Assembly (NCBI RefSeq): GCF_030684315.1
Contig: NC_081384.1
Span: 6,418,655 to 6,482,654, forward strand
DNA: 64,000 nt
Source: Stegostoma tigrinum
Taxonomy: Eukaryota
Direction: 5' to 3'
The notes beneath the pieces are model-generated. The model was not told where the DNA came from. It did no database searches and worked only from the letters and a program-made list of their open reading frames with translations. Positions 571 through 63,112 of the stretch are shown here, piece by piece. Each line of letters starts with the position of its first letter. Position 1 is the first letter of the stretch. A program made the position numbers and the translations under genes.

Positions 571-750
571 CTATCCATGTGCTGAAATAGACTGGACTGG
601 ATGGCTGAAGCTGCTTTAATATTTGAAAAGCACCTTGGAAACAACAGTTCATTTGATCCCCGTTCCCTGACTCTGTTCCAACTGCCCCACCAAGCGGTAT
701 TGTGATGATGGTGCATATAATCTACAGAACCGACTATAGCAACTCATTAC

Positions 751-1665
751 ATTTTTCCATCCCCTCCCCTGTCTGCTTTCCGGAGAGACCACTCTCTCCG
801 CGACTCCCTTGTTCGCTCCACACTGCCCTCCAACCCCACCACACCCGGCACCTTCCCCTGCAACCGCAGGAAATGCTACACTTGTCCCCACACCTCCTCC
901 CTCACCCCCATCCCAGGCCCCAAAATGACATTCCACATTAAGCAGAGGTTCACCTGCACATCTACCAATGTGGTATACTGCATCCACTGTACCCGGTGCG
1001 GCTTTCTCTACATTGGGGAAACCAAGCGGAGGCTTGGGGACCGCTTTGCAGAACACCTCCGCTCAGTTCGCAAAAAACAACTGCACCTCCCAGTCGCAAA
1101 CCATTTCCACTCCCCCTCCCATTCTCTTGATGACATGTCCATCATGGGCCTCCTGCACTGCCACAATGATGCCACCCGAAGGTTGCAGGAACAGCAACTC
1201 ATATTCCGCCTGGGAACCCTGCAGCCATATGGTATCAATGTGGACTTCACCAGTTTCAAAATCTCCCCTTCCCCTACTGCATCCCTCAACCAGCCCAGTT
1301 CGTCCCCTCCCCCCACTGCACCACACAACCAGCCCAGCTCTTCCCCCCCCACCCACTGCATCCCAAAACCAGTCCAACCTGTCTCTGCCTCCCTAACCGG
1401 TTCTTCCTCTCACCCATCCCTTCCTCCCACCCCAAGCCGCACCCCCCGCTACCTACTAACCTCATCCCACCTCCTTGACCTGTCCGTCTTCCCTGGACTG
1501 TCCTATCCCCTCCCTACCTCCCCACCTACACTCTCTCCACCTATCTTCTTTACTCTCCATCTTCGGTCCGCCTCCCCCTCTCTCCCTATTTATTCCAGTT
1601 CCCTCCCCCGATCCCCCTCTCTGATGAAGGGTCTAGGCCCGAAACGTCAGCTTTTGTGCTCCTGA
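751..1665 (+). pseudogene. PLE ORF C-terminal part: CxxxxCxxC linker plus GIY-YIG endonuclease (no RT, no native start)
   Basis: Open frame from 751: IFPSPPLSAFRRDHSLRDSLV...CNRRKCYTC...NVVYCIHCTRCGFLYIGETKRRLGDRFAEH...RRLQEQQLIFRLGTLQPYGIN, running into the track ORF 925-1665. Confidence 0.88.
1619..1650 (+). ncRNA. Minimal type I hammerhead ribozyme (PLE family A)
   Basis: CTGATGA-A-GGGT(CTAG)GCCC-GAAA-CGTC^AG: conserved core, stem II hairpin, loopless palindromic stem III; stem I is only ~2 bp. Confidence 0.8.
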
Positions 1666-1763
1666 GATGCTGCTTGGCCTGCTGTGTTCATCCAGCCTCA
1701 CATTTTATTATCTTGGAATCTCCAGCATCTGCAGTCCCCATTATCTCTGATAGCAACTCATTA

Positions 1764-2230: not shown

Positions 2231-2747
2231 TCATCAGCTCATTCCTTCTCCTTCTTCCCCTGAAGCTGTTGAGCACTTGCTGGAGTTGCAAAATTGTAAT
2301 TCCTGAGATGGATACATTCCTGGCAAGGCATAGCATTTGTTGTCCTTCCCTAATTGTGCTGAGACTTTGGGAGTTGAGGGCATAGCTGGCAATGGTTTGA
2401 TTCAACTGAATGGCTTGCTACTGGGGAAGAAAACTGGCAGGGCAACTGGGAAGTGCAGGAAAATGAGACTGATTGATTAGCTTTTTCAAAGACTTGGCAT
2501 AGGCTGCTGGCATCACAAAATATCCTGGTGTGTTGCTGTAGGATTCTGGGAAACAACACTTCAAAGAGAAGTTATAAGTCAGCCTTAATATTATGCTTTA
2601 GCTTATGGACTGTACAAGGTAAGAGGAGATGGTTTTTATTCCTTAAAAAATAGTAGAGAATCAGTTGGTACCTAAGGTTTTGGAGTAGATTTGTAGCTCG
2701 GGTTGTGGGTGTTGAGGTTGGTTGGCTCACTGAGCTGGTTTGTTGTT

Positions 2748-2791
2748 CCGCAGACATTTCGTTACCGTGCTGGGTAACATCCTCAGTGCAG
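2748..2791 (-). ncRNA. Minimal hammerhead ribozyme (family B, left arm)
   Basis: Minus strand CTGCA-CTGAGGA-T-GTTACC(CAGCAC)GGTAAC-GAAA-TGTC^TGCGG: 5-bp stem I and perfect 6-bp stem II. Confidence 0.85.
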
Positions 2792-3857
2792 CCTCTGATG
2801 AAGTGTCTGTGTGTTTTCCTGCCTGGTTTTTAAACTCTGAGGTGATGGATTGCCTCACTTCTGGGTTTCCTTCGTAGTGGAACGTATATGGGGTCGAGTT
2901 CAATGTGTTTATTGATAGCCTGCTTTGTGGAGTGCCATGCTTCCAGGAATTCTCGTGCTTGTCTCTGCCGAGCCTGTCCCAGGATCTTGCTGTTGTCCCA
3001 GTTGAAGTGGTGGTTCTCCTTGTCCATGTGGATTGAGAAGAGAGTGTGTTGGTCGTGTCTTTTTGTAGCCCTTTGGTGTTCATGTTCTCTTGTTGTTAGC
3101 TTCCTTCCTGTTTGTCCGATGTAGCGTTTCTCGCAGTCTCTGCAGGGGATCTTATAGATGACATTGGTCCTGTCCATGGTGGGGAGTGTGTCTTTAGTTC
3201 AGGTGCGCACTTGTTGTAGGGTTGATGTGGGTTTTGTGTGCCACAATGATAGAAGAGTGTTCGAGAGTAATGGATATCCAAAGAACTGGGTCAGGAGATG
3301 CCTACAGGAACCGCATCAGAAAGATTCTACACGTCCTGACACATTCATCATACTACCCTACATCAGGAACATGTCAGAGCTCACCACAAGACTTCTACGA
3401 CCGCTGGGCATCAGAGTGGCACACAAACCCACATCAACCCTATGACAAGTGACTAAAGACCCACTCCCCGCCATGGACAGAACCAATGTCATCTACAAGA
3501 TCTCCTGCAGAGACTGTGAGAAACACACAACCAGGAAGGAAGCTAACAACAAGAGTACACGAACACCAAAGGGCTACAAAAAGACACAGCCAATACTCAC
3601 TCATCTCAATCCACATGGACAAGGAGAACCACCTCTTCGACTGGGACAACACCAAGATCCTGGGACAGGCTCGGCAGAGACAAGCACGAGAATTCCTGGA
3701 AGCATGGCACTCCACGAAGCATGCTATTAATAAACACATTGAGCTCAACCCCATATACGTTCCACTACGAAGGAAGCCCGGAAGTGAGGCGAACCATCTC
3801 AATGGACCCCAGAGTTAAAAAATCAGGCGGGAAAACACGCCAACGCTTCAACGGACG

Positions 3858-3901
3858 CCGCACTGAGGATGTCACCAAGCAGGGTAACGAAATGTCTGCG
3901 G
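3858..3901 (+). ncRNA. Minimal hammerhead ribozyme (family B, right arm)
   Basis: CCGCA-CTGAGGA-T-GTCACC(AAGCAG)GGTAAC-GAAA-TGTC^TGCGG: perfect stem I CCGCA/TGCGG, one mismatch in stem II. Confidence 0.85.
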
Positions 3902-4365
3902 AACAACAAACCAGCTTGGCAAGCCAACCAACCACAAAAGTCAGTTGGGCTTTCACAGCAGTCTCACAACTCAACGATCACTTATTATAATGCCAGCTGC
4001 TTTCTTAAAACGGAAAGAACTCAAATTCTCATGGTGAAATTTGAACTCATAGGCTCTCAACACATGCGCATCTTTACATTGGGTAACATGTCTGCCAGGG
4101 TTCCAAATCCACATAAGAACCAGAAGAAATAATTGAATAGCAGTAAGCATGGGAACGTTATTTAATTTAACTCTCCTGTTCATGGATCCAGAGGCTGACT
4201 GTCAGATCCAATTGCTGCTCATGTTGAGGCCAATTAAGGCAGGACTCACAAAGACTTCTGCTGGACTCCCCAGTGGTCTGGACTCGCCTGTCCGCATGAC
4301 TTTTCTTAAAAACCTGATGAAGGCTTTGGTCACCCATCTTGATATATCACTTGCGGCTCAGAATT

Positions 4366-4440
4366 AAAACAGAAATTACTGGGAAAGTTTTCCCAGCAAT
4401 TTCTGATTTCCAGCATCTGCAGTTCTTCGGGACTTTTTTG
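4366..4440. mobile_element. Small palindromic remnant of an older PLE terminal-repeat family
   Basis: CAGAAATTACTGGGAAA / TTTCCCAGCAATTTCTG hairpin followed by CCAGCATCTGCAGTTC, the shared PLE tail. Confidence 0.6.
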
Positions 4441-5789
4441 GCTCAGAATTAAATTTTGTTTGTTAAAGTTCTTCTAAAATGGCTATGTTAAAAGGTCCTA
4501 TCTTTATACACCTTGTTATTGTTATGCTCTTAATTTGAAGAGACAGAGCCATTGATTTCTGTAAAACTTCAGTAGGAGGTCGGATTTAAATTCTGGTTTA
4601 TTTGAAGGTCAGGCTACAGTTAGTATTGTACTGTTTCTGCCATCAATATGTTCTTTTCAAGCTTAGTGCCAGATTTGCAGGAAGAACTGAATTACAGCTG
4701 TAAATTCTTTATCGTTTGAAGACTAAATTTAGTGAGAAAGCAAGTCTTGATTTTATTATTGTGTATACTGAGAGGAGTACATCAAGGTGAGCTTCACTGT
4801 ACTACACTCATCATTATTCATCATAAAACCATTTGTTAGTTCAAGAGCCTGTGTATCAGTTTAGTGAGAGTACGTGTTCAGTACTCTTTTCAAAGGAGAG
4901 CAGAATCACGTAATGCCACATGGCAAATTCTAACAGGGACATTACAACAGTGACTATACTTCAAAAAAAGCCTTCATTGACGGGAGAATGCATTGAGATC
5001 TCCTGAGCTCATAAGAGGTGTGGCATTAATACAAGTTTTGCTCTGTTTAGTTAAATACCTGCATTATGATCCCTGCGTCATGTGATTGTTTACATTCACA
5101 GAAAGTAGGCACTCCAGATCAAAGGAGGCACAAATATCACTTGGGTAACTGGTGAACCTGAGAGAATCACTGGTATAAAACACGTAAATGTGTCTGGTGA
5201 ACTCATCATCTCATTGGGATAAGTACATCTGTTAAATTTTCACCCACTGCCTTAGGCCCTGATTTCAGGCTGATTCAACCTATTATTTATTGCTTAGAAT
5301 TAAAAAATTTTGTTGAATTGCATCTGAGTGCACCTTTAACTTAAACCATCTGATCAAGACCAAGCTCCTTGTGCATCATGTTCAGGAAGGAATGATGCTA
5401 GACTTAAACCATAGAGAAAACAAGATGTGACAACACATCAGCACTCTGTGTGAAACACCCAGGCCTGAGGAGGACAAGCAGACAGACTCACCGTGGTATA
5501 ATTCACAGCCTTTTTCCCCCAAAGTGCTTGATGTATGATTTATTCTGAAGAACAGCATCTTGTGTACAGAACTATCCACAACAGCCAAATTTATAAAGCG
5601 CCTTTATGATAGGAAAATATCCCAAGTGGCTGACATGCAAATAAAGATAATAATAGCAGGTGCTGTCCACTTGCCCCTTTCAATAGTATCATGGTTGAAC
5701 TGATTATAGCCTCAAATCTATTTTCCTGCTTAACCCCAAAACTTCTGACTCCCTTCTGATTTTCAGAAGGCACTTGATAAGATACCACA

Positions 5790-9772: not shown

Positions 9773-10412
9773 TGAAAGAAAATTGAAGGAAGAAATACAG
9801 TGTAGCGATGATTAGGGATTGGGAAGATATTGACTCCAACAAAAGATGACTAAAAAATAATAAAGAGGGAGAAAATAATGTTTGAGAATAATCTTTCATG
9901 TAATATCAAGATTGAGAGCAAGAGCTTCTTCAAATGCATAAAGAGGAAGAGAGAAGTCAAAATTCTCATGGGAACCTTAGAGAATGAGGCTGGGCAAACA
10001 ATGATGGGGAACCAGGAAATGGCAGAGGAGTTGAATAAATACTTGACATTGTTTTTACAACAGAAGACACTAATAGCATTACAAAAGTATAAAATAATCA
10101 ATAAATACCAAACAACCATGATGGTAAATGGTACCAGGGAAAAATAATCGGGGTAAAAGTGATGCGTGCACTTGACCAGATGGGTTGTCACCTAGGAACG
10201 CCAAATATGTAGCTACAGAGATAATAGATGCACTGGTAGTAATCTTCCAAGAATCCTTAGATTCTGGAAATGCCCTGAAGGATTGGAAAACTGCCAATGT
10301 AACAATCTTATTCAAAAAGTGAAAGAAACAAAAAAAGGTAACTATACACCAGTTTATTGAACATCTGTTATTGGGAAAATATTAAAATCGATTGTAAAGG
10401 ATGTAATTGCAG

Positions 10413-10728
10413 ATTAGATTAGATTCCCTACAGTGTGGAAACAGGCCCTTCGGTCCAGCAAGTCCACACTGCCCCTTGAAGCATCCCACCCAGACCCATC
10501 CCCCATAACCCACACACCCCTGAACACTACGGGCAATTTAGCATGGCCGATCCACTTAGCCTGTACATCTTTGGACTGTGGGAGGAAACTGGAGCACTCG
10601 GAGGAAACCCATGGATACACGAGGAGAATGTGTAAACTCCGCACAGACAGTTACCCAAGGCTGGAATTGAACCTGGGTCCCTGGCGCTGTGAGGCTGCAG
10701 TGCTAACCACTGAGCCACCGTGCCACCC
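10413..10728 (-). mobile_element. V-SINE (HE1-like), near full length, inside CR1
   Basis: Minus strand GGTGGCACGGTGGCTCAGTGGTTAGCACTGC, GGTTCAATTCC, V domain and (AATCT)n tail. Confidence 0.92.
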
Positions 10729-12087
10729 AAATATATAATATCATTAAGCAGACTCAACATGGACTCATGAAGTGGAAATCATGCCAGACAAATTTTCTAG
10801 AATACTTTGAAGGAGTAACAAGCAGCATAACTAAATAGCAACCAGTACATGTAATGTACATGGATTTCCAGATGTTGGCTTTTTAATAACAGCCAGTGGT
10901 GTCAAGGCATGGGTAGAAGATTGGCTAAATTGTGGAAGACAGAAAATTGGGATAAGGTGAGGGTTGGGGTGGGGGGAGGTGAGATAATTCAGGATGGTAA
11001 CCTGTAACCAGTGAAATGCCAAAGGGTTCAGTGCTGGAGCCGCAATTATTTGCGGTATACATTCATGGCTTTAATAAGGAAAATGAACAGCCAAATCTGC
11101 AGATGACACAAAATTAGATAGGAAGGCAAAAGGTAAGGATGACACAAAGTGCCTGCAGAGGGATATGGACTGGTTAAGTGACTGAACATAAGGTTGGCAG
11201 ATAGAATATAACATGAGAAAATGTGAGGTTCTGCACTTTGGCATGAAGAATAGAGGAGCTTAATATTATTTAAATAGAGTGAGACTGCAGAAAGCTACAG
11301 GACAGGGGATTTGGGATGCTTCATCCACGAATCGAACAAAGCTAACACACAGGTTCAGCAGGTATCAGGGAAGGCAATGGAATGTTAGCTTTTATTTTAA
11401 AGGGAGAGGGAAGTCTTGTAAAACTATACAAGCCATAAGTTGAACCACATCTAGAACACTGTGAACATTTTGGACCCAGGAAAGGTCTACTGGTATTTTA
11501 AGGTAGTCCAGAGAAAGTTCACCCAGTTAATTCCAGATATGGAGGGACTTTCATATGAGGAGCAATTGAATAGGTTGGGCCTGTACTCATTTCAGTTTAG
11601 AAGAATGAGAGGTGACATTATTGAATTGAACAAGCTCCTTAGGGGGGCTTGACTGGGTAGATGCAGAAGGGTTGTTTTCCCTTGTGGGAGAGTCTAGGAC
11701 CAAAGGGTATAATCTTAGAATAAGTGATTGTTTATTTAAAACAGAGATGATGAGGAATTTCTTCTCTCAGAGGGTTGTGATTCTGTGGAATCCTTTACTG
11801 CAAAGAAAGTCAAGGGTAGGTAATTAATTTTATTCAAGGCTGAGATATACAGGTTTTTATTCAGTAAGGTAATCAAAGATTATAGGAAAGCAGAGTTGGG
11901 TATTAACAGATCAGCCTTGATCTCAAAGAATAGCAGAGCAGACTCAGATGGGCTGAATGGTCTGGTCCAATCCTACCATGTATGGTCTTATATGTTGATT
12001 GAAATACAAAGTATGATTCCACAAAAAAAAACTTTGGCCTGCTTATTCTTTTCCATCCAGAATACCATCGTTGCTGCCAAAAATAAC

Positions 12088-15419: not shown

Positions 15420-15655
15420 TGCAAGTAAAGTACTGTTGGTGCTGGAACTCTGAAACAAAATTTGGAGCATGCTGGAGAAACTCAGAGGGTCTGGCAGCAT
15501 CAATGGAGAGAGACAGAGTTAATGTTATGAGTCCAGTATACTCTTCTTAAGAAGAAGAATGCCCTGTTTCTGAAGAAGAGTAATATTGGACTCAAAATGT
15601 TAACACTGTCACTCTCCGGAGATGCTGCCAGCTTTGTTCCTCCAATTCTGGTCTC
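15420..15655. mobile_element. Palindromic non-autonomous PLE derivative (older family) with decayed hammerheads
   Basis: Arms GAGTCCAGTATACTCTTCTT and GAAGAAGAGTAATATTGGACTC; CTGAAGA-A-GAGT...ACTC-AAAATGTTAAC is a mutated core. Confidence 0.7.
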
Positions 15656-16397: not shown

Positions 16398-16620
16398 AAG
16401 TTATAGTGACTTAACGAGGTCAGCCAGATGGACATCATAGAATAAGTTCCCTGATTAGGGCTGTTAACCTGGTCCAATCAGGGAGCCCTGGCTGACAGAT
16501 ATAAACAGGAGTGTCAGAGGTTCTGCTTGCTCAGAGAGCTGGATCAGTGTCAAGGACTCTCCATGTGTAAATGAAGGGTGACTTGGTGACAGGATTTGGC
16601 CTCTGTGGTGTTATTTCACA
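16398..16620 (+). mobile_element. Solo LTR of the Gypsy family at 38487-40694
   Basis: CCAATCAGGGAGCCCTGGCTGACAGATATAAA...GGGTGACTTGGTGAC...GTTATTTCA matches both LTRs of that element. Confidence 0.82.
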
Positions 16621-16640
16621 AACTGTCCATCTCTGGCTTC

Positions 16641-16862
16641 AGTGCACATTCTCCCCGTGTCTGTGTGGGTTTCCTCCGGGTGCTCCGGTTTCCTCCCACA
16701 GTCCAAAGATGTGCAGGCGAGGTAGGTTGGCTACACTAAATTGCCCGTAGTGTTCAGGGGTGTGTGGGTTATGGGGCGATGGTTCTGGGTGGATTCTCCA
16801 AAGGTCCTTGTGGACTTGTTGAGCCAAAGGGCCTGTTTCTACACTGTAGGGATTCTATCTAT
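16641..16862 (+). mobile_element. V-SINE, 5'-truncated
   Basis: V domain and tail present, head absent. Confidence 0.88.
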
Positions 16863-21379: not shown

Positions 21380-22925
21380 ATAGAAGTGTAGAAATTAGGA
21401 GCAGGAGTAGGCCATTCAGCCCTTCAAGGCTAGTCCACCATTCAACATGATCTTGTCTGACCTTCCAACTCAGTACCCTATTCCCACTTGATCTGTTAAG
21501 AACCGAAGAACAATGAGCAAAGAACAAAGAAAATTACAGCACAGGAACGGGCCCTTTGGCCCTCCAAGCCTGTACCAACATGCTGCCCATCACAACTAAA
21601 ACCCCCTACCCTTCCAGGAACCATGTCCCTCTATCCCCATCCTGTTCATATATTTATCAAGAGGCCCTTTAAAACTCACTATTGTACCTGCTTCCACTAC
21701 CTCCCCCAACAGCGGGTTCCAGGCACACACCACCCTCTGTGTAAAAAGCTTGCCTCATACATCACCTTTAAACCTTGCCCCTCCCACTTTCAACCTATGT
21801 CCCCTAGTAACTGACTCTTCCTCCCTGGGAAAAAGCTACTGACTATCCACACCCTTCATAATCTTGTAGACCTCTATCATGTCACCCCTCAACCTCTGTT
21901 GTTTCAGTAAGAACAACCCAAGTTTCTTCAACCTCTCCTTATAGCTAATGTCCTCCATACCAGGCAACATCCTGGTAAATCTTTTCTGTTCCCTCTCCAA
22001 AGTCACTCACATCCTTCTGGTGAGAGATAATGGGAACTGCAGATGCTGGAGATTCCAAGATAATAAAATGAAGGGTCTAGGCCCGAAACGTCAGCTTTTG
22101 TGCTCCTGAGATGCTGCTTGGCCTGCTGTGTTCATCCAGCCTCACATTTTATTATCTTCACATCCTTCTGGTAGTGTGTCTACCTGAATTGAACACAATA
22201 TTCCAAATGTGGCCTAACTAAGGTTTTACAAAGCTGCACCATTACCTGCCAATTTTTAAACTCAATGCTCTGGTGGATGAAGACAAGCATGCCATATGCC
22301 TTATTGACTACCTTTTCTAACTGTGTTACTGCTTTCAGTGACCTGTGTATCTGTATACCCAGATCCCTCTGCCTATCAGTACTCTTAAGGGTTCTTCCTT
22401 TTACTGTATATTTTCCATCTGGATTAGACCTTTCAAAATGCATTACCTCACATTTTTCTGGATCAAACTCCATCTGCTATCCCTTTGCCCAAGTCACCAA
22501 CCAATCCGTATCCAGCTGTATCCTTTAATGGTCCCCATCGCTATCCACAATTCCACCAAACATTGTGTCATCGGCAAACTTATTAATCAGACCAGTTACA
22601 TTCTCCTCCAAATCATTCAAATATTACAAACAACAAAGGTCCTAACTCTGACCCCTGAGGAACACCACTAGTCACAGTCCTCCATTCAGAAATGCATCCT
22701 TCCACTGCTACCCTCTGTCTTCTATGACTGAGCCAGTTTTTTATCCATCTTGCAAGCTCACCTCTAACCTCATGCGATTTTACCTTCTGTATCAGCCTGC
22801 CATGAGGGGCCTTGTCAACAGCCTTACTGAAGTCCATATAGACAACATCCACTACCCTACCCTCATCGATCATCTTTGTCACATCCTCAAAAACTCAAGC
22901 ATGTTAGTGAGACATGACTACACTA
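21380..22925 (-). mobile_element. CR1 LINE(s): RT through 3' UTR, with nested tails
   Basis: VDVVYMDFSKAVDKAPH, GVPQGSELGPLLF, KCEVMHF, LVRPHLEYCVQF. Confidence 0.93.
22022..22157. mobile_element. 136-bp PLE family A mini-insertion with inverted 5' piece and 15-bp TSD
   Basis: TSD TCACATCCTTCTGGT at 22007-22021 and 22158-22172; hammerhead lacks the initial CTG. Confidence 0.9.
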
Positions 22926-33859: not shown

Positions 33860-35265
33860 TCATCGGACTCAGGAACAGAAGTAGGCTATTCAGCACTTTT
33901 GAGTCTGTTCTGCCATCCAATAAAGTCATGGCCAATCTGATTATAACCTCAACTCAACTGACCTACCATCCTTCCCCACAACTCTTGACTAGCTAGTTCA
34001 ATCTTTAATAAATTTAACGTCAACTGTTTTCTGAGGAAGAAAATTCCACTGACTAATGTATCATTTGGAAAAAAGAATGTACTCATCTCTTCTTAGAACA
34101 GAGAATTTTTTAGTCTTAGACTGTGTCCCCCTAAATTCCAGTCATTTCCCTCAAGAGGTTTCATTCTGTTAAACTCCAGTGGTTAAAGGCTGAAGGCTTT
34201 TTCCACAAGATAAGCCCTTTGCCCCAGGAATGAGTTGAACAATTGCCTCTGAACTGCTTCCAAAGCAACTATATTATTTTTCAAATAAGGAAACCAAAAT
34301 TCTGCGGTCCTCCGGAAATGATCTCACCAAGGGTCTATAAGGTGCAACAAAAATTCTCTCCTCCTAGATTCCATTTTCCTTACAATGAACACTAATTTTT
34401 GAATGGCTTTCCTGATCACTTGCTGTGCCTGAAATTTGAATCACCTCTCAGTTTTCCTGCCACTGCACAGACCTCCAAAGTGACAGCAGCATCTGGAACC
34501 AGGAGCCTATTAGTGTGAATGGGCAGTGGCTAGATCCTCTGAACCATACAGCTTAGAGGGAAAATTGTGATCAGACCTGTTCTTCCTCTCACCTATTCCC
34601 TCCTCCCACCTCAAGCCTCACCTCCATTTCCCACCTACTAACCTCATCCCGCCCCCTTGACCTGTTCATCCCCGGGCTGACCTATCCCCTCCCTACCTCC
34701 CCATCCCTACTCTCCTCCCCACCTATCTTCTCCTCTATCCATCATCAGTCCGCCTCCCCCTCTCTCCCTATTTATTTCAGAACTGTCTCCCCATCCCCCT
34801 TTTCTGATGAAGGGTCTAGGCCTGAAACGTCAGCTTTTATGCTCCTGAGATGCTGCTTGGCCTGCTGTGTTCATCCAGCTCCACACTTTATTATCTTAGC
34901 TTAGAGGGAACATTTCCTGCAAAATCACCTTTTGTGGTACATGTGCCTGGAAACCCAGATCCCCTTTGTAACCCTAAATTCTGCAATCTCTCTCCACTTA
35001 AATAGAGCACTGCTGTTCTATCAAGTTCACATTTTTACACATTATACTCCAGCTGACAATTTTTAGCCCACTCAGTTAATCTCTCTATATCTTGCTGTAG
35101 CTTCTATACCACCTCCTGAGACTTAAGTTTCTTATCCTGGTGGTTTTCAGCAAATCCAGTTATCATACATTTGCTCACCATATCCAGGTTACTGATATAC
35201 TGATACGTTGATTATAAATATTTGAGGCCCCAGCACTGATCTCTGTTGCGCTTCACCAGTTACAA
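33860..35265 (-). mobile_element. Fragmented CR1 LINE
   Basis: Antisense 3' UTR GTAGGCTATTCAGC; GAGGCCCCAGCACTGATC is antisense GSVLGP. Confidence 0.7.
34563..34897 (+). mobile_element. PLE family A 3' fragment with hammerhead (~34802-34833) and 13-bp TSD
   Basis: TSD AGCTTAGAGGGAA at 34550-34562 and 34898-34910; CTGATGAAGGGTCTAGGCCTGAAACGTCAG. Confidence 0.9.
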
Positions 35266-41035: not shown

Positions 41036-41999
41036 TAGCTCAAAGGAAACCACTTCCTGTTAAACTGGAAGAGTCTCTTGCAGTTAACAAGATTGAGTTT
41101 GTTGCATATGTAATGGGGTGGCACATGGATAGGGTGGCAACAGGGTCGGGTGGAAAGTGGTTAGGTGACTGAGGTAGAGATATGCTGATTGCTGGCAGTT
41201 GGGCCATTAGAGGTTGTCACAGAATTGTTACGGCCACAGAAAGAGGCCATTCAACCCATCTTACATGCACCACTTGTATTAACTCGTGCTAATCTGCTGT
41301 CATTTTCTCATTTCACTGCACACCATGTCTACCCAAATAATCACCAATGACTCTTGGAGGCATCAATGGAACAGAATTGGTCATGAGCAAGTCAGGCTGG
41401 GCTGGGGACGGCAGGGTAGTCAGATCTGATCAAGGCCTTAGTAAGGCTTGGTCTGAGATAGCAGGGAGTTCAGGGATGTGGTCAGGGCTTAAAATGGTTG
41501 ACTAAGGGAGCTCAATGTCAGTGTTCTATCACTACCCCAGAGTCAGAGTAGGAACTTTCTGCATAACATTTCCTGAATAATACACTAGGTTAGTAAATTG
41601 ACTGTCTGGTTGGACCTCAGAGACTAGGCAATCTAAGCCTATGTTTAAAAGTGATTTTTTTAAAAAATTCCAATTGGGTGAGGGAAAGATTGGGTGACTG
41701 AAAGTGAGCAGGTTGGTGATAAGCACAGCCAATAAGAGTTGACAATCTAACCGCATAATCCAGAAAAGGCCATGATGGAACATTGCCCCTTTAAACATCG
41801 ATTCATACTTTGTGCAATGAAGTGTGCAGCAACAAGTAGACAGTGAGTTTGATGGGAGGTGTGCCAGTTGTACAATGTGCCACACTAGTAACAATCTACA
41901 TCATTAATAGCAACAGCCCTGTCAGTCAGGTAGGATGTTTGAGACATACAGAGAGACAATGCTGCTGTGCAGCCAGCTACTCGATCACATTCACTGAAT

Positions 42000-42128
42000 C
42001 TGATGCAAGGGTCTAGACCTGAAACGTCAGCTTTTGTGCTCCTGAGATGCTGCTTAGCCTGCTGTGTTCATCCAGCTTCACACTTTATTATCTTAGATTC
42101 TCCAGCATCTGCAGTTCCCATTATCTCT
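42000..42128 (+). mobile_element. PLE family A terminal repeat only; hammerhead has a 1-nt insertion
   Basis: CTGATGCAAGGGTCTAGACCTGAAACGTCAGC...CCCATTATCTC; possible short TSD AATCTGAT. Confidence 0.88.
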
Positions 42129-42534
42129 AAATCTGATAATTGTTTAAGAACATGCTTTGCACCTACTACTCCTTCCTCTGCATGTAATAATTTTAAAGCA
42201 TCTGACTTTTGCTGTACATTTTCCTTTGCATGGCCAGTAAACTGTCAGTGTGTAGATGTTCAGGAACCATTATGCTGCGCAAAAAGCACATTAAGACATA
42301 AATGAGAGTATACGTTGGGGTAACTGAGCATAAAATGTGTGTGACATGAGGAAGTCCTTCACCTTTACTTTCAGGAGCCCATTTCGCACAGGTTTGATAT
42401 TGTATTGGGCGCTATATAGCTTCAACCTTCAGCTGGTCAACAGGTCCAGGCAAATGTCAGTTACCTCAGGCAATGAACATCACTGTGATTTTATTGACAT
42501 TTACAAACAATGACAAAACTAATCGAGATCAGTA

Positions 42535-42750
42535 CAGATAACAAGGTGTGAAGCTGGATGAACACAGCAGGCCAAGCGACATCAGAGGAACAGGAAAGCT
42601 GACGTTTCAGGTCTAGACCCTTCTTCAGAAAAGGGTCTAGACCTGAAACGTCAGCCTTCCTGCTCGTCTGATGCTGCTTGGCCTGGTGTTCATCCAGCTC
42701 TACACCTTGTTATCTCAGATTCTCCAGCATCTGTACTGCCTTTTATCTCT
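42535..42750. mobile_element. Palindromic PLE family A derivative centred on the hammerhead
   Basis: ~85-bp arms; centre GTCTAGACCCTTCTTCAGAAAAGGGTCTAGAC; near-TSD GAGATCAGTA (42525-42534) / GAGAGCAGTA (42751-42760). Confidence 0.9.
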
Positions 42751-43569
42751 GAGAGCAGTAGAATTGGGTTTATTCCTGAAATATGAATATCATGTTAAGG
42801 GAGTTAAATTCAGTCTCTTTATTTTTACCTTTTGTATTCTCCATCCATTCCCTTTGTCCTCCTTTCTCTGTGGGAATTCCATTTCTACAGGCCCTCCCAC
42901 CACACCACCTCCTTCCGCATAACACCCCTCCCCAACCTGAATCCATCATTGCTACTCATTATACAACATACCAGTTTATCAAATAATTGAAATTCACTGC
43001 CCATTTATCCCCAACTTTCATCTCTTTCTTGCTCCCCTCTTTTGTTATATCTGCTCCAGCCATGCCTGCTTCAGTTCTATGGCTTTCAGTCACTCCAAGA
43101 AGGGGGATATCTTTTTATGGGATTGAAGTTTGGTTGACAGGCTCTTAAATCAGGACAGAAGTTATTTCTCTCACCAGCAGTCATCACTCACACATGTAAA
43201 ATGGCTATCAGGGAAAGGCACCTGAATTAATCTTCCCTTTGCAATCTCTAGATACCAAGGTACTCAACCTAAGCCCTACCAGAGATGGCTTCATGCTGTA
43301 GAAACTTGGACACTGAATCTTGTACCTTCCTTGTCTGTTGGCTCACCAGATACTCACCAATCTAAAATCAATCAGTTTAAATTTGGGATTGATAGTTGCC
43401 ATCCAAGAATGTTCAATGAAATGGAAGATCAACAGGTGGACAATGAATTGGCTGTGGTCTTCTTGAATAGTGAAATAGACTCAGGGGAACTGGATGTCCT
43501 CTTCCTGTTCCTGTATCCTTAAGCTATGTACATCTCTTTTTGAAAGAATTAAGTATTTTCTTTCCTAAT

Positions 43570-43780
43570 AAAAACAGCAAGAGAAACTCAACAGGTCTGG
43601 CAGCACCTGTGCTGAGAGAAAGTCAGAGTTAACATTTTAAATCTTCTTCAGAAATTTGAAGAATTTTGCTTTTGAAGAAGCAATGTTAACTCTGTTTTAC
43701 TCTTCACAGATGCTGCTAGACCATCTGAGATTCTTCAGCTTTTGCTGCTTTATTTTAAATCTGCAGCACTTTGCTTTTAT
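43570..43780. mobile_element. Palindromic old-family PLE derivative
   Basis: CAGAGTTAACATT / AATGTTAACTCTG arms, central TCTTCTTCAG / TGAAGAAG. Confidence 0.7.
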
Positions 43781-57485: not shown

Positions 57486-57795
57486 GGGTGGCACGGTGGC
57501 TCAGTGGTTAGCACTGCAGCCTCACAGCACCAGGGACCTGGGTTCGATTCCACCCTTAGGCAACTGTCTGTGTAGAGTTTGCACATTCTCCCTCTGTCTG
57601 TGAGGGTTTGCCTTGGTTTCCTCTCACAGTCCAAAGATGTATAGTCTAGGTGGATTAGCCATGCAAAATTGCCCGTAGTGGTCAGGGATGCGTAGCTTAG
57701 GTGGATTATAAGGGGATGGGTCTGGGTGGGATGCTCCAAGGGTCAGTGTGGACTTGTTGGGCCGAAGGGCCTGTTTCCACACTGGAGGGATTCTC
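57486..57795 (+). mobile_element. V-SINE (HE1-like), full length
   Basis: GGGGTGGCACGGTGGCTCAGTGG, GGTTCGATTCC, V domain and tail. Confidence 0.93.
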
Positions 57796-58082
57796 TCAAA
57801 CTCAGCAATCTAAATACTAAAATTATCACATTGCAATACAAGATTTTTTTTTGCAGAGTTACATTAAAGCAATGACCCAACAGATGAATGAGCTTCAGAG
57901 AATAGGCGTTGTATGTTTATTTTATTGTGTGGCATTGTAATTCACCAGGATTTGCTCTCAGATTCACAATGCTGTGCACTTATTTTCAACTACTAAAGAA
58001 CCTTATCCGCTCCATGTTAATGCTAAATGTTTCTGCTTAACGCAAAGAACTCCAGCTTCCCCTGAAGCCCACAATTCACAAA

Positions 58083-58272
58083 CGCAGAGAAAGCTCAGCA
58101 GGTCTAGCAGGGTCAGTGGAGAGAAATCAGAGTTAGTATTTTGGATTGAGTAACCCTTCCTCAGAATGTTAACTCTGATTTCTCTCCACTGACACAGCCA
58201 GGCCTGCTGAGTTTTTTTCAGCAATTACTACTTTTGTGTCGGATTCAAAGAATCTGCTGTTCTTTCAGTTTT
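58083..58272. mobile_element. Palindromic old-family PLE derivative (a further single arm lies at ~58465-58560)
   Basis: GTCAGTGGAGAGAAATCAGAGTTA / TAACTCTGATTTCTCTCCACTGAC inverted arms. Confidence 0.75.
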
Positions 58273-58669
58273 CACAAATACAGGGTTACCTGGGCAAGGT
58301 ACATTTGCGGCACATGTGGAATATGACCTGAAGTTTGCTCCCGTTCGATGTGTGTCAAATTCGACCAGCAATAATTCTGGAAGTTATATCACGTGACTTT
58401 CCTTGTTTCAACTTCCCAGCCCAGAGTCTCACAACGGTCCTCCCCACAACCAACAATCCAATATAAAAACAGAAATTGCTGGAAAAGCTCAGCAAATGTG
58501 ACAACGTCAGTGAAGAGGAATCAGTGTTAACATTTCGGCTCTTGGTGACCCTTCGTCACCACCAACAATTCAATATTTGCATTGTAACAAAATTCAGGAT
58601 TAATCAATGAAAATTTCCTTGGAAAGCTGCATGTTTTATGCCCAAATGTTTTTTCTCTAATTAGTTGCT

Positions 58670-60591: not shown

Positions 60592-60947
60592 CAACACGGT
60601 GGCTCTGTGGTTAGCACTGCTGCCTCACAGCGCCAGGGACCCAGGCTCAATTCTACCCTTGGGTGACTGTCTGTGTGGAATTTGCACATTCTCCCCATGT
60701 CTGCGTGGGTTTCCACCAGGTGGTCCAGTTTCCTCCACAATCCAAAGATGCACAGGTAGGATGGATTGGCCATGCTAAATTGCCCATAGTGTCCAGGGAT
60801 ACACAGGCTAGGTGGATTAGACTTAGGAGAGGCAGGGTTACTTGGATAGGGTATTGGGGGCGTGGGGGGGGGAAGCAGGGTGTATAGGTCTGGGCGGGAT
60901 GCTCTTTGGAGTGTCTGAATGGCCTGCCCTCACACTGCAGGGATTCT
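60592..60947 (+). mobile_element. V-SINE (HE1-like)
   Basis: Head, V domain and tail. Confidence 0.92.
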
Positions 60948-62184: not shown

Positions 62185-63112
62185 AGCTGGCAGATAGGGT
62201 GGTCAAGAAGGCATACAGTATGCTTGCTTTCATCAACTAGGGCATCAAATATAAAAGTTGACAAGTTTTGTTAAAATTTTAGCTCGGCCACATTTGGAAT
62301 ATTGCGTGCAGTTCTGGTCGTCACACTATCAGAAGGATGTGGATATTTTAGAGAGGGTGCAGAGGAGGTTTACTAGGATGTTGCCTGGCCTGGAGGGTTT
62401 TAGTTATGAGGAGAGTTTGGATAAACTTGGATTGTCTTCATTGGAAAAATGGAGGCAGTGGGGCCACCTGATAAAGATCTACAAAATTATGAGAGGCAGA
62501 GATAGATTAGCTTAGATTAGATTCCCTACAGTGTGGAAACAGGCCCTTTGGCCCAACAAGTCCACACTGCCCCTTGGAGCATCCCACCCAGACCCATCAC
62601 CCTATAGCCCACACATCCCTGAACATTATGGGCAATTTAGCATGGCCGTTCCTCCCAGCCTGCACAGCTTTGGGCTGTGGGAGGAAACCGGAGCACCCGG
62701 AGGAAACCCACTCAGACAGTGAGAATGTGCAAACTCCACACAAACAGTTGCCGAGAGTGGAATCGAATTCGGGTCCCTGGCGCTGTGAGGCTGCAGGATG
62801 GGATCAGAAACATTTTCCCCAAGGTGAAGAATTCAACTACACGAGGGCACAGGTTCAAGGAGAGTGTGGGAAAGTTTAGGGGAGAGGTGCGGTGAAAATC
62901 TTTCACCCAGAGGGTGGTGGGTGCTTGGAAAGCGCTGCCAATGGAAGTGGTGGAAGCAGGCATGTTGGCAATGTTTAAGGTACATCTTGATAGGCAAATG
63001 AACTGGAGGTGAACGGAGGGATAGAAACTGTGCATGGGCAATAACTAGAGTCTAAATAAGGATTAGGAATCAGCACAGGCTTGGTGGGCTGAAGGGCCTG
63101 TTCCTGTGCTCA
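62185..63112 (+). mobile_element. CR1 LINE 3' portion, interrupted by a V-SINE
   Basis: LARPHLEYCVQFWS...LERVQRRFTRMLPGLEG; resumes with TRGHRFK. Confidence 0.92.
62506..62797 (-). mobile_element. V-SINE (slightly 5'-truncated) inside CR1
   Basis: (TTAGA)n tail and antisense V domain. Confidence 0.9.

Follow-up and report, generated by a model that had tools for sequence, protein, structure and literature searches.

Head-to-head terminal repeats of a Penelope-like element in Stegostoma tigrinum: short palindromes as probable products of reverse transcription from both ends of the target cut

In Stegostoma tigrinum several short palindromes, among them the insertion at 42535-42750, lie within a stretch of 64,000 nucleotides of contig NC_081384.1 (the window). 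They consist of the terminal repeat (pLTR) of a Penelope-like element (PLE), which carries a hammerhead-type core, a putative ribozyme. This raises the question of whether such hairpins are propagated as units of their own, result from a reverse transcriptase (RT) that stalls and folds back at the ribozyme, or originate in another way. With a probability of about 0.7, we propose that they are the shortest class of ordinary PLE insertions and that each one probably arose independently, when a single RNA was copied from the two ends of the cut target up to the probably capped 5' end of that RNA. The palindromes are real and abundant, and they belong to a known class of element, so that no new class has to be introduced.

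Table 1 Features of the window. Positions within arms, here and in the text, are numbered from the C of CTGANGA (= 0)
Feature	Position	Strand	Description
5'-truncated young PLE	721..1750	+	comprises GIY-YIG region (Pfam E 5e-4, below the curated cut-off) and 3' region; core at 1621; pLTR end tailed
Palindrome arms	4366-4409		86% (self-alignment)
Minimal old-family palindrome	4366..4440		~22-nt arms plus tail; 14-bp TSD 4355-4368 / 4440-4453
Old-family palindrome	15420..15655		tailed and tail-less arm, core reached by both
Palindrome arms	15491-15631		77% (self-alignment)
Young head-to-head insertion	22023..22158		tailed arm from +80, tail-less arm from +3; 15-bp TSD
Unpaired tail-less arm	34575..34897	+	13-bp TSD
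Unpaired tailed arm	41999..42128	+	begins at -1 of core
TSD of the 42535 copy	left 42525..42534, right 42751-42760	+ (left)	9/10 identical
Whole insertion, head-to-head pLTR pair	42535..42750		older subfamily of RT + GIY-YIG PLE, ~82% to young full-length copy
Palindrome arms	42536-42715		88.5% complementary, centre 42625.5 (self-alignment)
Tail-less arm	42536..42635	-	+92 back to ~-5/-7; full core 42601-42628
Tailed arm	42631..42750	+	+6 to ~+126; without CTGANGA
Microhomology common to both arms	42631-42635		5 bp
One-sided tail	42716..42750	+	~35 nt; in the full-length element continues into the 5' end of the ORF region
Old decayed palindrome	43570..43780		tail uncalled by script
Palindrome arms	43582-43734		70% (self-alignment)
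Old-family palindrome	58083..58272		tail-less arm to 0, tailed arm from +19
Palindrome arms	58090-58215		79% (self-alignment)

Self-alignment of the window recovered all five palindromes that a first-pass annotation had reported (Table 1), and the young insertion at 22023 was absent from its list. The features it had ascribed to the 42535 copy, namely a full core on the minus strand, a plus-strand arm lacking CTGANGA and a nearly perfect target site duplication (TSD), were each seen. It had left unstated that the ends of this copy are asymmetric, the right arm being ~35 nt longer than the left owing to the tail. The minus-strand core reads CUGAAGA...GAAAC-GUC with its C at 42628 and a predicted cut after 42601. 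The annotation had also placed the inversion centre at or just 5' of the core in the four larger palindromes. This does not hold at 58083, where the centre lies within the core, and at 43570 the core is too decayed for exact placement; in the 4366 palindrome the pivot lies well 3' of the core in both short arms. An 81-bp inverted match (75%) at 58165-58534 pairs the right arm of the 58083 palindrome with 58455-58534, which is probably another old-family arm. A second PLE family with a different GIY-YIG-like sequence occupies 2712-3950 as a head-to-head pair with long arms; its core, CTGAGGATG...GAAAT, is found at 2786 (minus) and 3863 (plus). The window further holds a dispersed repeat in both orientations, presumably SINE-like (10406-10738, 16412-16857, 57486-57809, 60595-60736 and 62347-62718).

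The palindrome arms match the terminal repeat of the PLE whose 3' end forms window positions 721-1750. A full-length parent (locus L166) comprises a 3654-bp unit with an open frame of 1099 aa and cores at 3680 and 7334. It carries a single ORF with RT followed by GIY-YIG, flanked by pLTRs, as expected for endonuclease-containing (EN+) PLEs, and its Pfam matches to RVT_1 (E 2e-4) and GIY-YIG (E 2e-3) are both below the curated cut-offs. A C-x4-C-x2-C motif precedes the GIY-YIG domain in the RT-EN linker. Since a zinc-finger-like CxxC motif at this position is a published criterion for Neptune and common to Nematis, the Cys-rich linker suggests one of these two groups. One 23-mer of the young arm has 103,604 exact copies in the 3.2-Gb host genome. 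The older palindromes belong to related pLTR families: in seven cases old-family arms lie downstream of matches to the endonuclease region, one case being a palindrome arm merely near a match. Thus the origin of the palindromes from at least two families, as first annotated, is borne out. CTGAAGA was considered as a palindrome-specific mutation and discarded, since a body-linked older pLTR with CTGAAGA translates consistently.

An Rfam scan gave no hammerhead match at E<=1, and the ribozyme call therefore rests on the motif match to the minimal hammerhead (PMC4209133, consulted in part). Core and stem II fit the minimal type I motif, stem I of the young family has only 2 bp, and in the old family positions -4..-1 are able to pair as a 4-bp stem I. 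Minimal hammerheads in pLTRs have been published, including opposite-strand pairs 100-700 bp apart. Forcing the hammerhead fold on the minus-strand palindromic RNA costs ~36 kcal/mol (from -161.3 to -125.7), so a palindromic transcript is predicted to lock its ribozyme.

Their size and hairpin shape could let the palindromes pass for MITEs of a DNA transposon or for miRNA precursors, and Rfam does return miRNA matches in three stretches. These matches are sub-threshold, with 28-34 bits against cut-offs of 85-108, and the TSDs are variable (9-20 bp) rather than fixed in length. The ends are asymmetric with a one-sided tail, and the sequence itself is the pLTR of an RT + GIY-YIG element. Such an origin is therefore hardly conceivable, and the earlier assignment to PLE-derived retro-insertions rather than DNA MITEs stands on the RT + GIY-YIG parent and the variable TSD.

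Genome-wide, a gap-tolerant pattern found 15,457 head-to-head loci joined near the core through many different junctions, versus none for the reversed-pattern control. The exact junction of the 42535 copy has 211 genome copies, and the best 30 BLAST matches mostly share its junction and ends. These observations, together with the description of PLE-derived non-autonomous retrozymes (10.64898/2026.07.22.740005, in the part consulted), would fit a SINE- or retrozyme-like unit with a palindromic transcript that the PLE enzyme amplifies. The resemblance among the top BLAST matches reflects ranking bias, however, and the argument from them was dropped once this was seen; the 211 copies stand against 15,457 matches with diverse junctions under the looser pattern. 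In a sample of 30 loci with the exact junction the tail lies on the left in 14, on the right in 14 and is uncalled in two, and the same junction is present in different subfamilies. Within an insertion the subfamily alleles of the two arms agree. Spans extend as a series to 3.9 kb, the predicted cost of the hammerhead fold argues further against such a unit, and the described retrozymes are head-to-tail tandems while one tandem faces 84 head-to-head pairs here. An amplified unit is accordingly improbable as a general explanation, even though a minor amplified subset may exist. The mapping of junctions proposed with the first annotation as a test of amplification favours recurrent formation, the junctions being clustered yet distinct. 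The diverse junctions, the tail on either side and the series of spans indicate that the palindromes are made repeatedly, as the short mode of that series.

How the arms are paired was determined in a contiguous sample of 1.264 Mb from eight stretches (3.8% N). It contains 284 arms, which form 84 head-to-head pairs, no tail-to-tail pair and one tandem. Pairs consist of one tailed arm (3' end at ~+127) and one tail-less arm (~+92) in 79 of 84 cases, where 50% would be expected (p 2e-18). All 11 long young pairs are likewise tailed plus tail-less; these were hand-picked, and one of the 12 fetched yielded no pair under the filter. Among old-family pairs the same holds for 21/25, the other four being without a called tail and none two-tailed. 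A TSD was found in 57 of the 79 mixed pairs, versus 0.05 in mismatched-flank controls, and measures 12-17 bp in 49 of the 57. Pair spans follow a bimodal distribution (92-245 bp in 58 pairs, 389-3930 bp in 26), and 58 of the 84 paired insertions consist of pLTR sequence alone, which corresponds to ~46 per Mb for one family. The 55 short mixed pairs show 48 distinct end combinations. Two side observations concern composite loci. At C13:35885000-35909999 (L171-L173) some five tandem repeats of a head-to-head PLE insertion follow one another at a period of 3378 bp; their flanks are nearly identical, and a local segmental amplification is the probable cause. At C1:1472270 (L274) a young arm abuts an old-family arm near the core (C1:1472302), which may reflect insertion of the young copy into an older pLTR.

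The two arms of an insertion appear to derive from one template. Divergence between arms is 0.074 within insertions versus 0.126 after permutation, and subfamily alleles are common to both. Of the doubleton variants among 22 long arms, all 12 are confined to the arm pair of a single insertion, against a share of 0.048 by chance, although shared private variants could also stem from gene conversion between arms. Arm lengths are coupled as well: in the 79 mixed pairs both arms are short in 55, both are long in 19 and only five are discordant (p 3e-13). Several hand-picked long young pairs (L174-L185) have arms that end less than ~20 nt apart and more than 1 kb from the start (-1472/-1476, -1908/-1915, -1408/-1408), which suggests coupled termination or a broken RNA end.

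Shared private variants would also result if a single cDNA came to a halt at the folded hammerhead or just beyond it, annealed back onto itself through microhomology and self-primed the second arm, and self-priming has been proposed for PLE inversions (PMC3846280, in the part consulted). Junctions often show microhomology (e.g. CCCTT/AAGGG), breakpoints gather at the core, and in 42 of the 79 mixed pairs the arms end within 20 nt of each other. A second arm made by fold-back cannot, however, outreach the tailed cDNA that serves as its template, and the tail-less arm extends more than 20 nt further in 22 of the 79 pairs, compared with 15 in which the tailed arm does. Six tailed arms begin at +70 or later, and some hold little beyond the tail itself while their tail-less partners measure as much as 2.7 kb; in the pairs (+94,-2694), (+103,-1457), (+87,+1) and (+80,+3) there is almost no overlap that could be flipped. 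Since the tail-less arm can outreach the tailed one, a single self-primed cDNA cannot yield this pattern, which priming at both target ends does allow. The arguments from tail side and reach lose some weight because the spacer may be flipped by recombination between arms.

The ends of the arms are informative at base level. Termination reaches 26-28 per kb at -15..+15 versus 0-2.4 per kb upstream, likewise for young arms alone, in agreement with the clustering of breakpoints at the core that had been annotated. Because a single young copy served as the BLAST reference for locating arm ends, old arms are biased towards -1, a bias from which the figures for young arms alone are free. Among the first 100 matches listed of young arms that reach 0, read by eye, 35 stop at 0 to -5, one at about -11 and none at -6 to -10; a script run on 30 loci agreed with these counts except for two mislabelled subfamily variants. 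The wall of young arms thus lies 4-5 nt 5' of the core and ~30 nt from the predicted cut site (+27). A pivot at the ribozyme cut site, another candidate, was ruled out, as stem II and GAAAC are kept in the arms and the wall lies ~30 nt 5' of GUC. Old-family arms, read by eye among the first 100 listed, stop within ~7 nt of the core in about 86 cases, and an extra-base signal is not clear there. The TTTT subfamilies, and likewise the tail-less arm of the 42535 copy, read CCCTTTTC at the wall, which matches the TCT consensus YYCTTTYY; the young sequence CCCTCTCT has one mismatch.

Arms ending at -4 number 7,928 versus 556 at the control position +41, counted with similar though not identical patterns. 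The base before -4, C in the parent, is G in 83/100 arms among the matches listed, which were the first along the largest contigs and read by eye. When the partner arm is excluded from the context, the 100 matches listed give G 79, T 15 and A 6. At +41 G precedes 31 of the 100 listed (Fisher 9e-12 versus 79/100 at -4), this control being confounded by partner microhomology and small deletions. Position -2, intended as a negative control, is also G-rich (43 G, 6 A; T is templated there), which fits a second start and equally a plain terminal addition of C by the RT. The extra G at -4 could likewise be due to terminal transferase activity. A 5' G in excess of the template is a sign of capping in full-length L1 insertions (PMC11702581), and a Penelope promoter and transcription start lie in this region (PMC2377424); by analogy with these we infer that a capped transcript begins immediately 5' of the core.

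These ends also bear on stalling and fold-back. With the 4-bp stem I of the old family the wall would coincide with the 5' edge of the ribozyme, as expected for a stall, but in the young family stem I has just 2 bp. Moreover, an added G is unexpected from a stall, and the ends at -4 occur on tailed (16/30) and tail-less (14/30) arms alike. Since the tail-less arm often reaches further and the wall is situated past the 5' edge of the core instead of at the cut site, stalling and fold-back, one of the two origins first suggested, is not favoured and seems unlikely to us.

For two-ended copying we propose the following course. The GIY-YIG endonuclease would make a staggered cut that gives rise to the TSD. 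Reverse transcription would begin at two sites, one per target strand, corresponding to the arm starts at ~+127 (tail end) and ~+92 (inner), and one RNA would serve as template twice, as the private variants and the length class common to both arms suggest. Transcription would begin in the pLTR at the position of the end at -4/-5, and the G would be derived from copying the cap. The two cDNA ends would then be united by end-joining, in line with junctions that vary between microhomology, filler and trimming. Starts in the 5' pLTR would run off past the cap after ~100-130 nt and yield hairpins of ~90-245 bp, while starts in the 3' pLTR would give long arms and palindromes of 0.4-4 kb. In the 42535 copy the tail-less arm would reach the putative start (-5) and join the tailed arm through the native 5-bp microhomology; this microhomology would be the reason why the junction recurs. 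According to the run-off model, the hammerhead sits at the pivot only because it is located at the start of the transcript.

We consider it slightly better than an even bet that this PLE normally integrates by two-ended reverse transcription. A single capped RNA would then be copied onto both target strands by one ribonucleoprotein, beginning at two fixed sites ~35 nt from each other. Copies begun in the 5' pLTR would run to the end of the RNA at a TCT-like start, located 4-5 nt ahead of the hammerhead, and include the cap, leaving ~10^5 ribozyme hairpins as by-products. As 116 of the 284 arms are without a partner within 80 nt, two-ended insertion may not be obligatory, and since many short arms end at +5 to +55, the run-off model needs trimming or later central deletion.

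In the parts consulted of the literature on the PLE insertion pathway, the inversion is explained by self-priming and the tail by resolution through the endonuclease, and the one in vitro study leaves the joining steps open. A natural record of more than 100,000 young arms makes the mechanism testable and yields base-level predictions: two starts, one template and a capped start at -4/-5. If the two-ended reading is true, the inverted pLTR, the tail at one end only and the large number of solitary hammerheads across the genome have a common mechanism. At the density found for this family, mis-annotation of the hairpins as MITEs or pre-miRNAs is to be expected, and where transcribed they would be a source of double-stranded RNA.

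The palindromes had been put forward as a candidate for an undescribed system. This cannot be maintained, as an inverted 5'-truncated pLTR with a one-sided tail of 30-40 nt is published architecture of EN+ PLEs (PMC3846280; PMC8557442, legend of Fig. 2), and junction palindromes are a published PLE feature too, as far as the parts consulted go. By titles and the beginnings of abstracts, we found no report of PLE twin priming, of a cap G in PLE palindromes or of a 5' wall with an extra G in PLEs; repeat libraries and older literature may list such palindromes. The term 'twin priming' has no occurrence in PMC2377424, PMC8557442 and PMC3846280 as far as these texts were available, and the portions consulted of PMC5753468, PMC2997562, PMC5625713 and PMC8969392 hold nothing specific to the palindromes.

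In the parts of the following sources that were consulted, four systems come close. Pen2a_Av of Adineta vaga (PMC3846280) and the scheme in PMC8557442 share with the insertions described here the head-to-head inverted pLTR, a 30-40 nt tail at one end, a short variable TSD, overlap at the junction and a hammerhead-type motif in the pLTR. The insertions in S. tigrinum differ in that about two thirds of the paired ones are pLTR-only, at the density given above for a single family. Both papers regard the inversion as a result of self-priming and let the endonuclease produce the tail by resolution, whereas our data favour two primed ends. The Poseidon element PAc of Anolis offers the biochemical parallel: the purified PLE protein cuts and extends both strands, internal RT starts lie at two sites flanking the tail, and hammerhead cleavage is dispensable (PMC11167929). 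As here, both strands are extended and two internal starts define the tail. The joining steps are left open in that work and neither palindromes nor 5' run-off are derived there; unlike PAc, the element described here shows the Cys-rich RT-EN linker that characterises Neptune/Nematis. Non-LTR retrozymes (10.64898/2026.07.22.740005; PMC7229834) are similarly short, non-coding, derived from PLE pLTRs and provided with a hammerhead motif. Retrozymes occur as head-to-tail tandems or monomers; the insertions described here are oriented head-to-head, differ in their junctions and would, by prediction, keep the ribozyme trapped in the hairpin. LINE-1 twin priming (PMC11702581) resembles the proposed course in the second reverse transcription on the reciprocal DNA end, the retained TSD, the microhomology at the junction and the extra 5' G. 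In L1, however, only part of the insertions are inverted and the second priming relies on internal annealing, whereas in the PLE described here both starts appear fixed and the arms overlap, giving rise to a palindrome.
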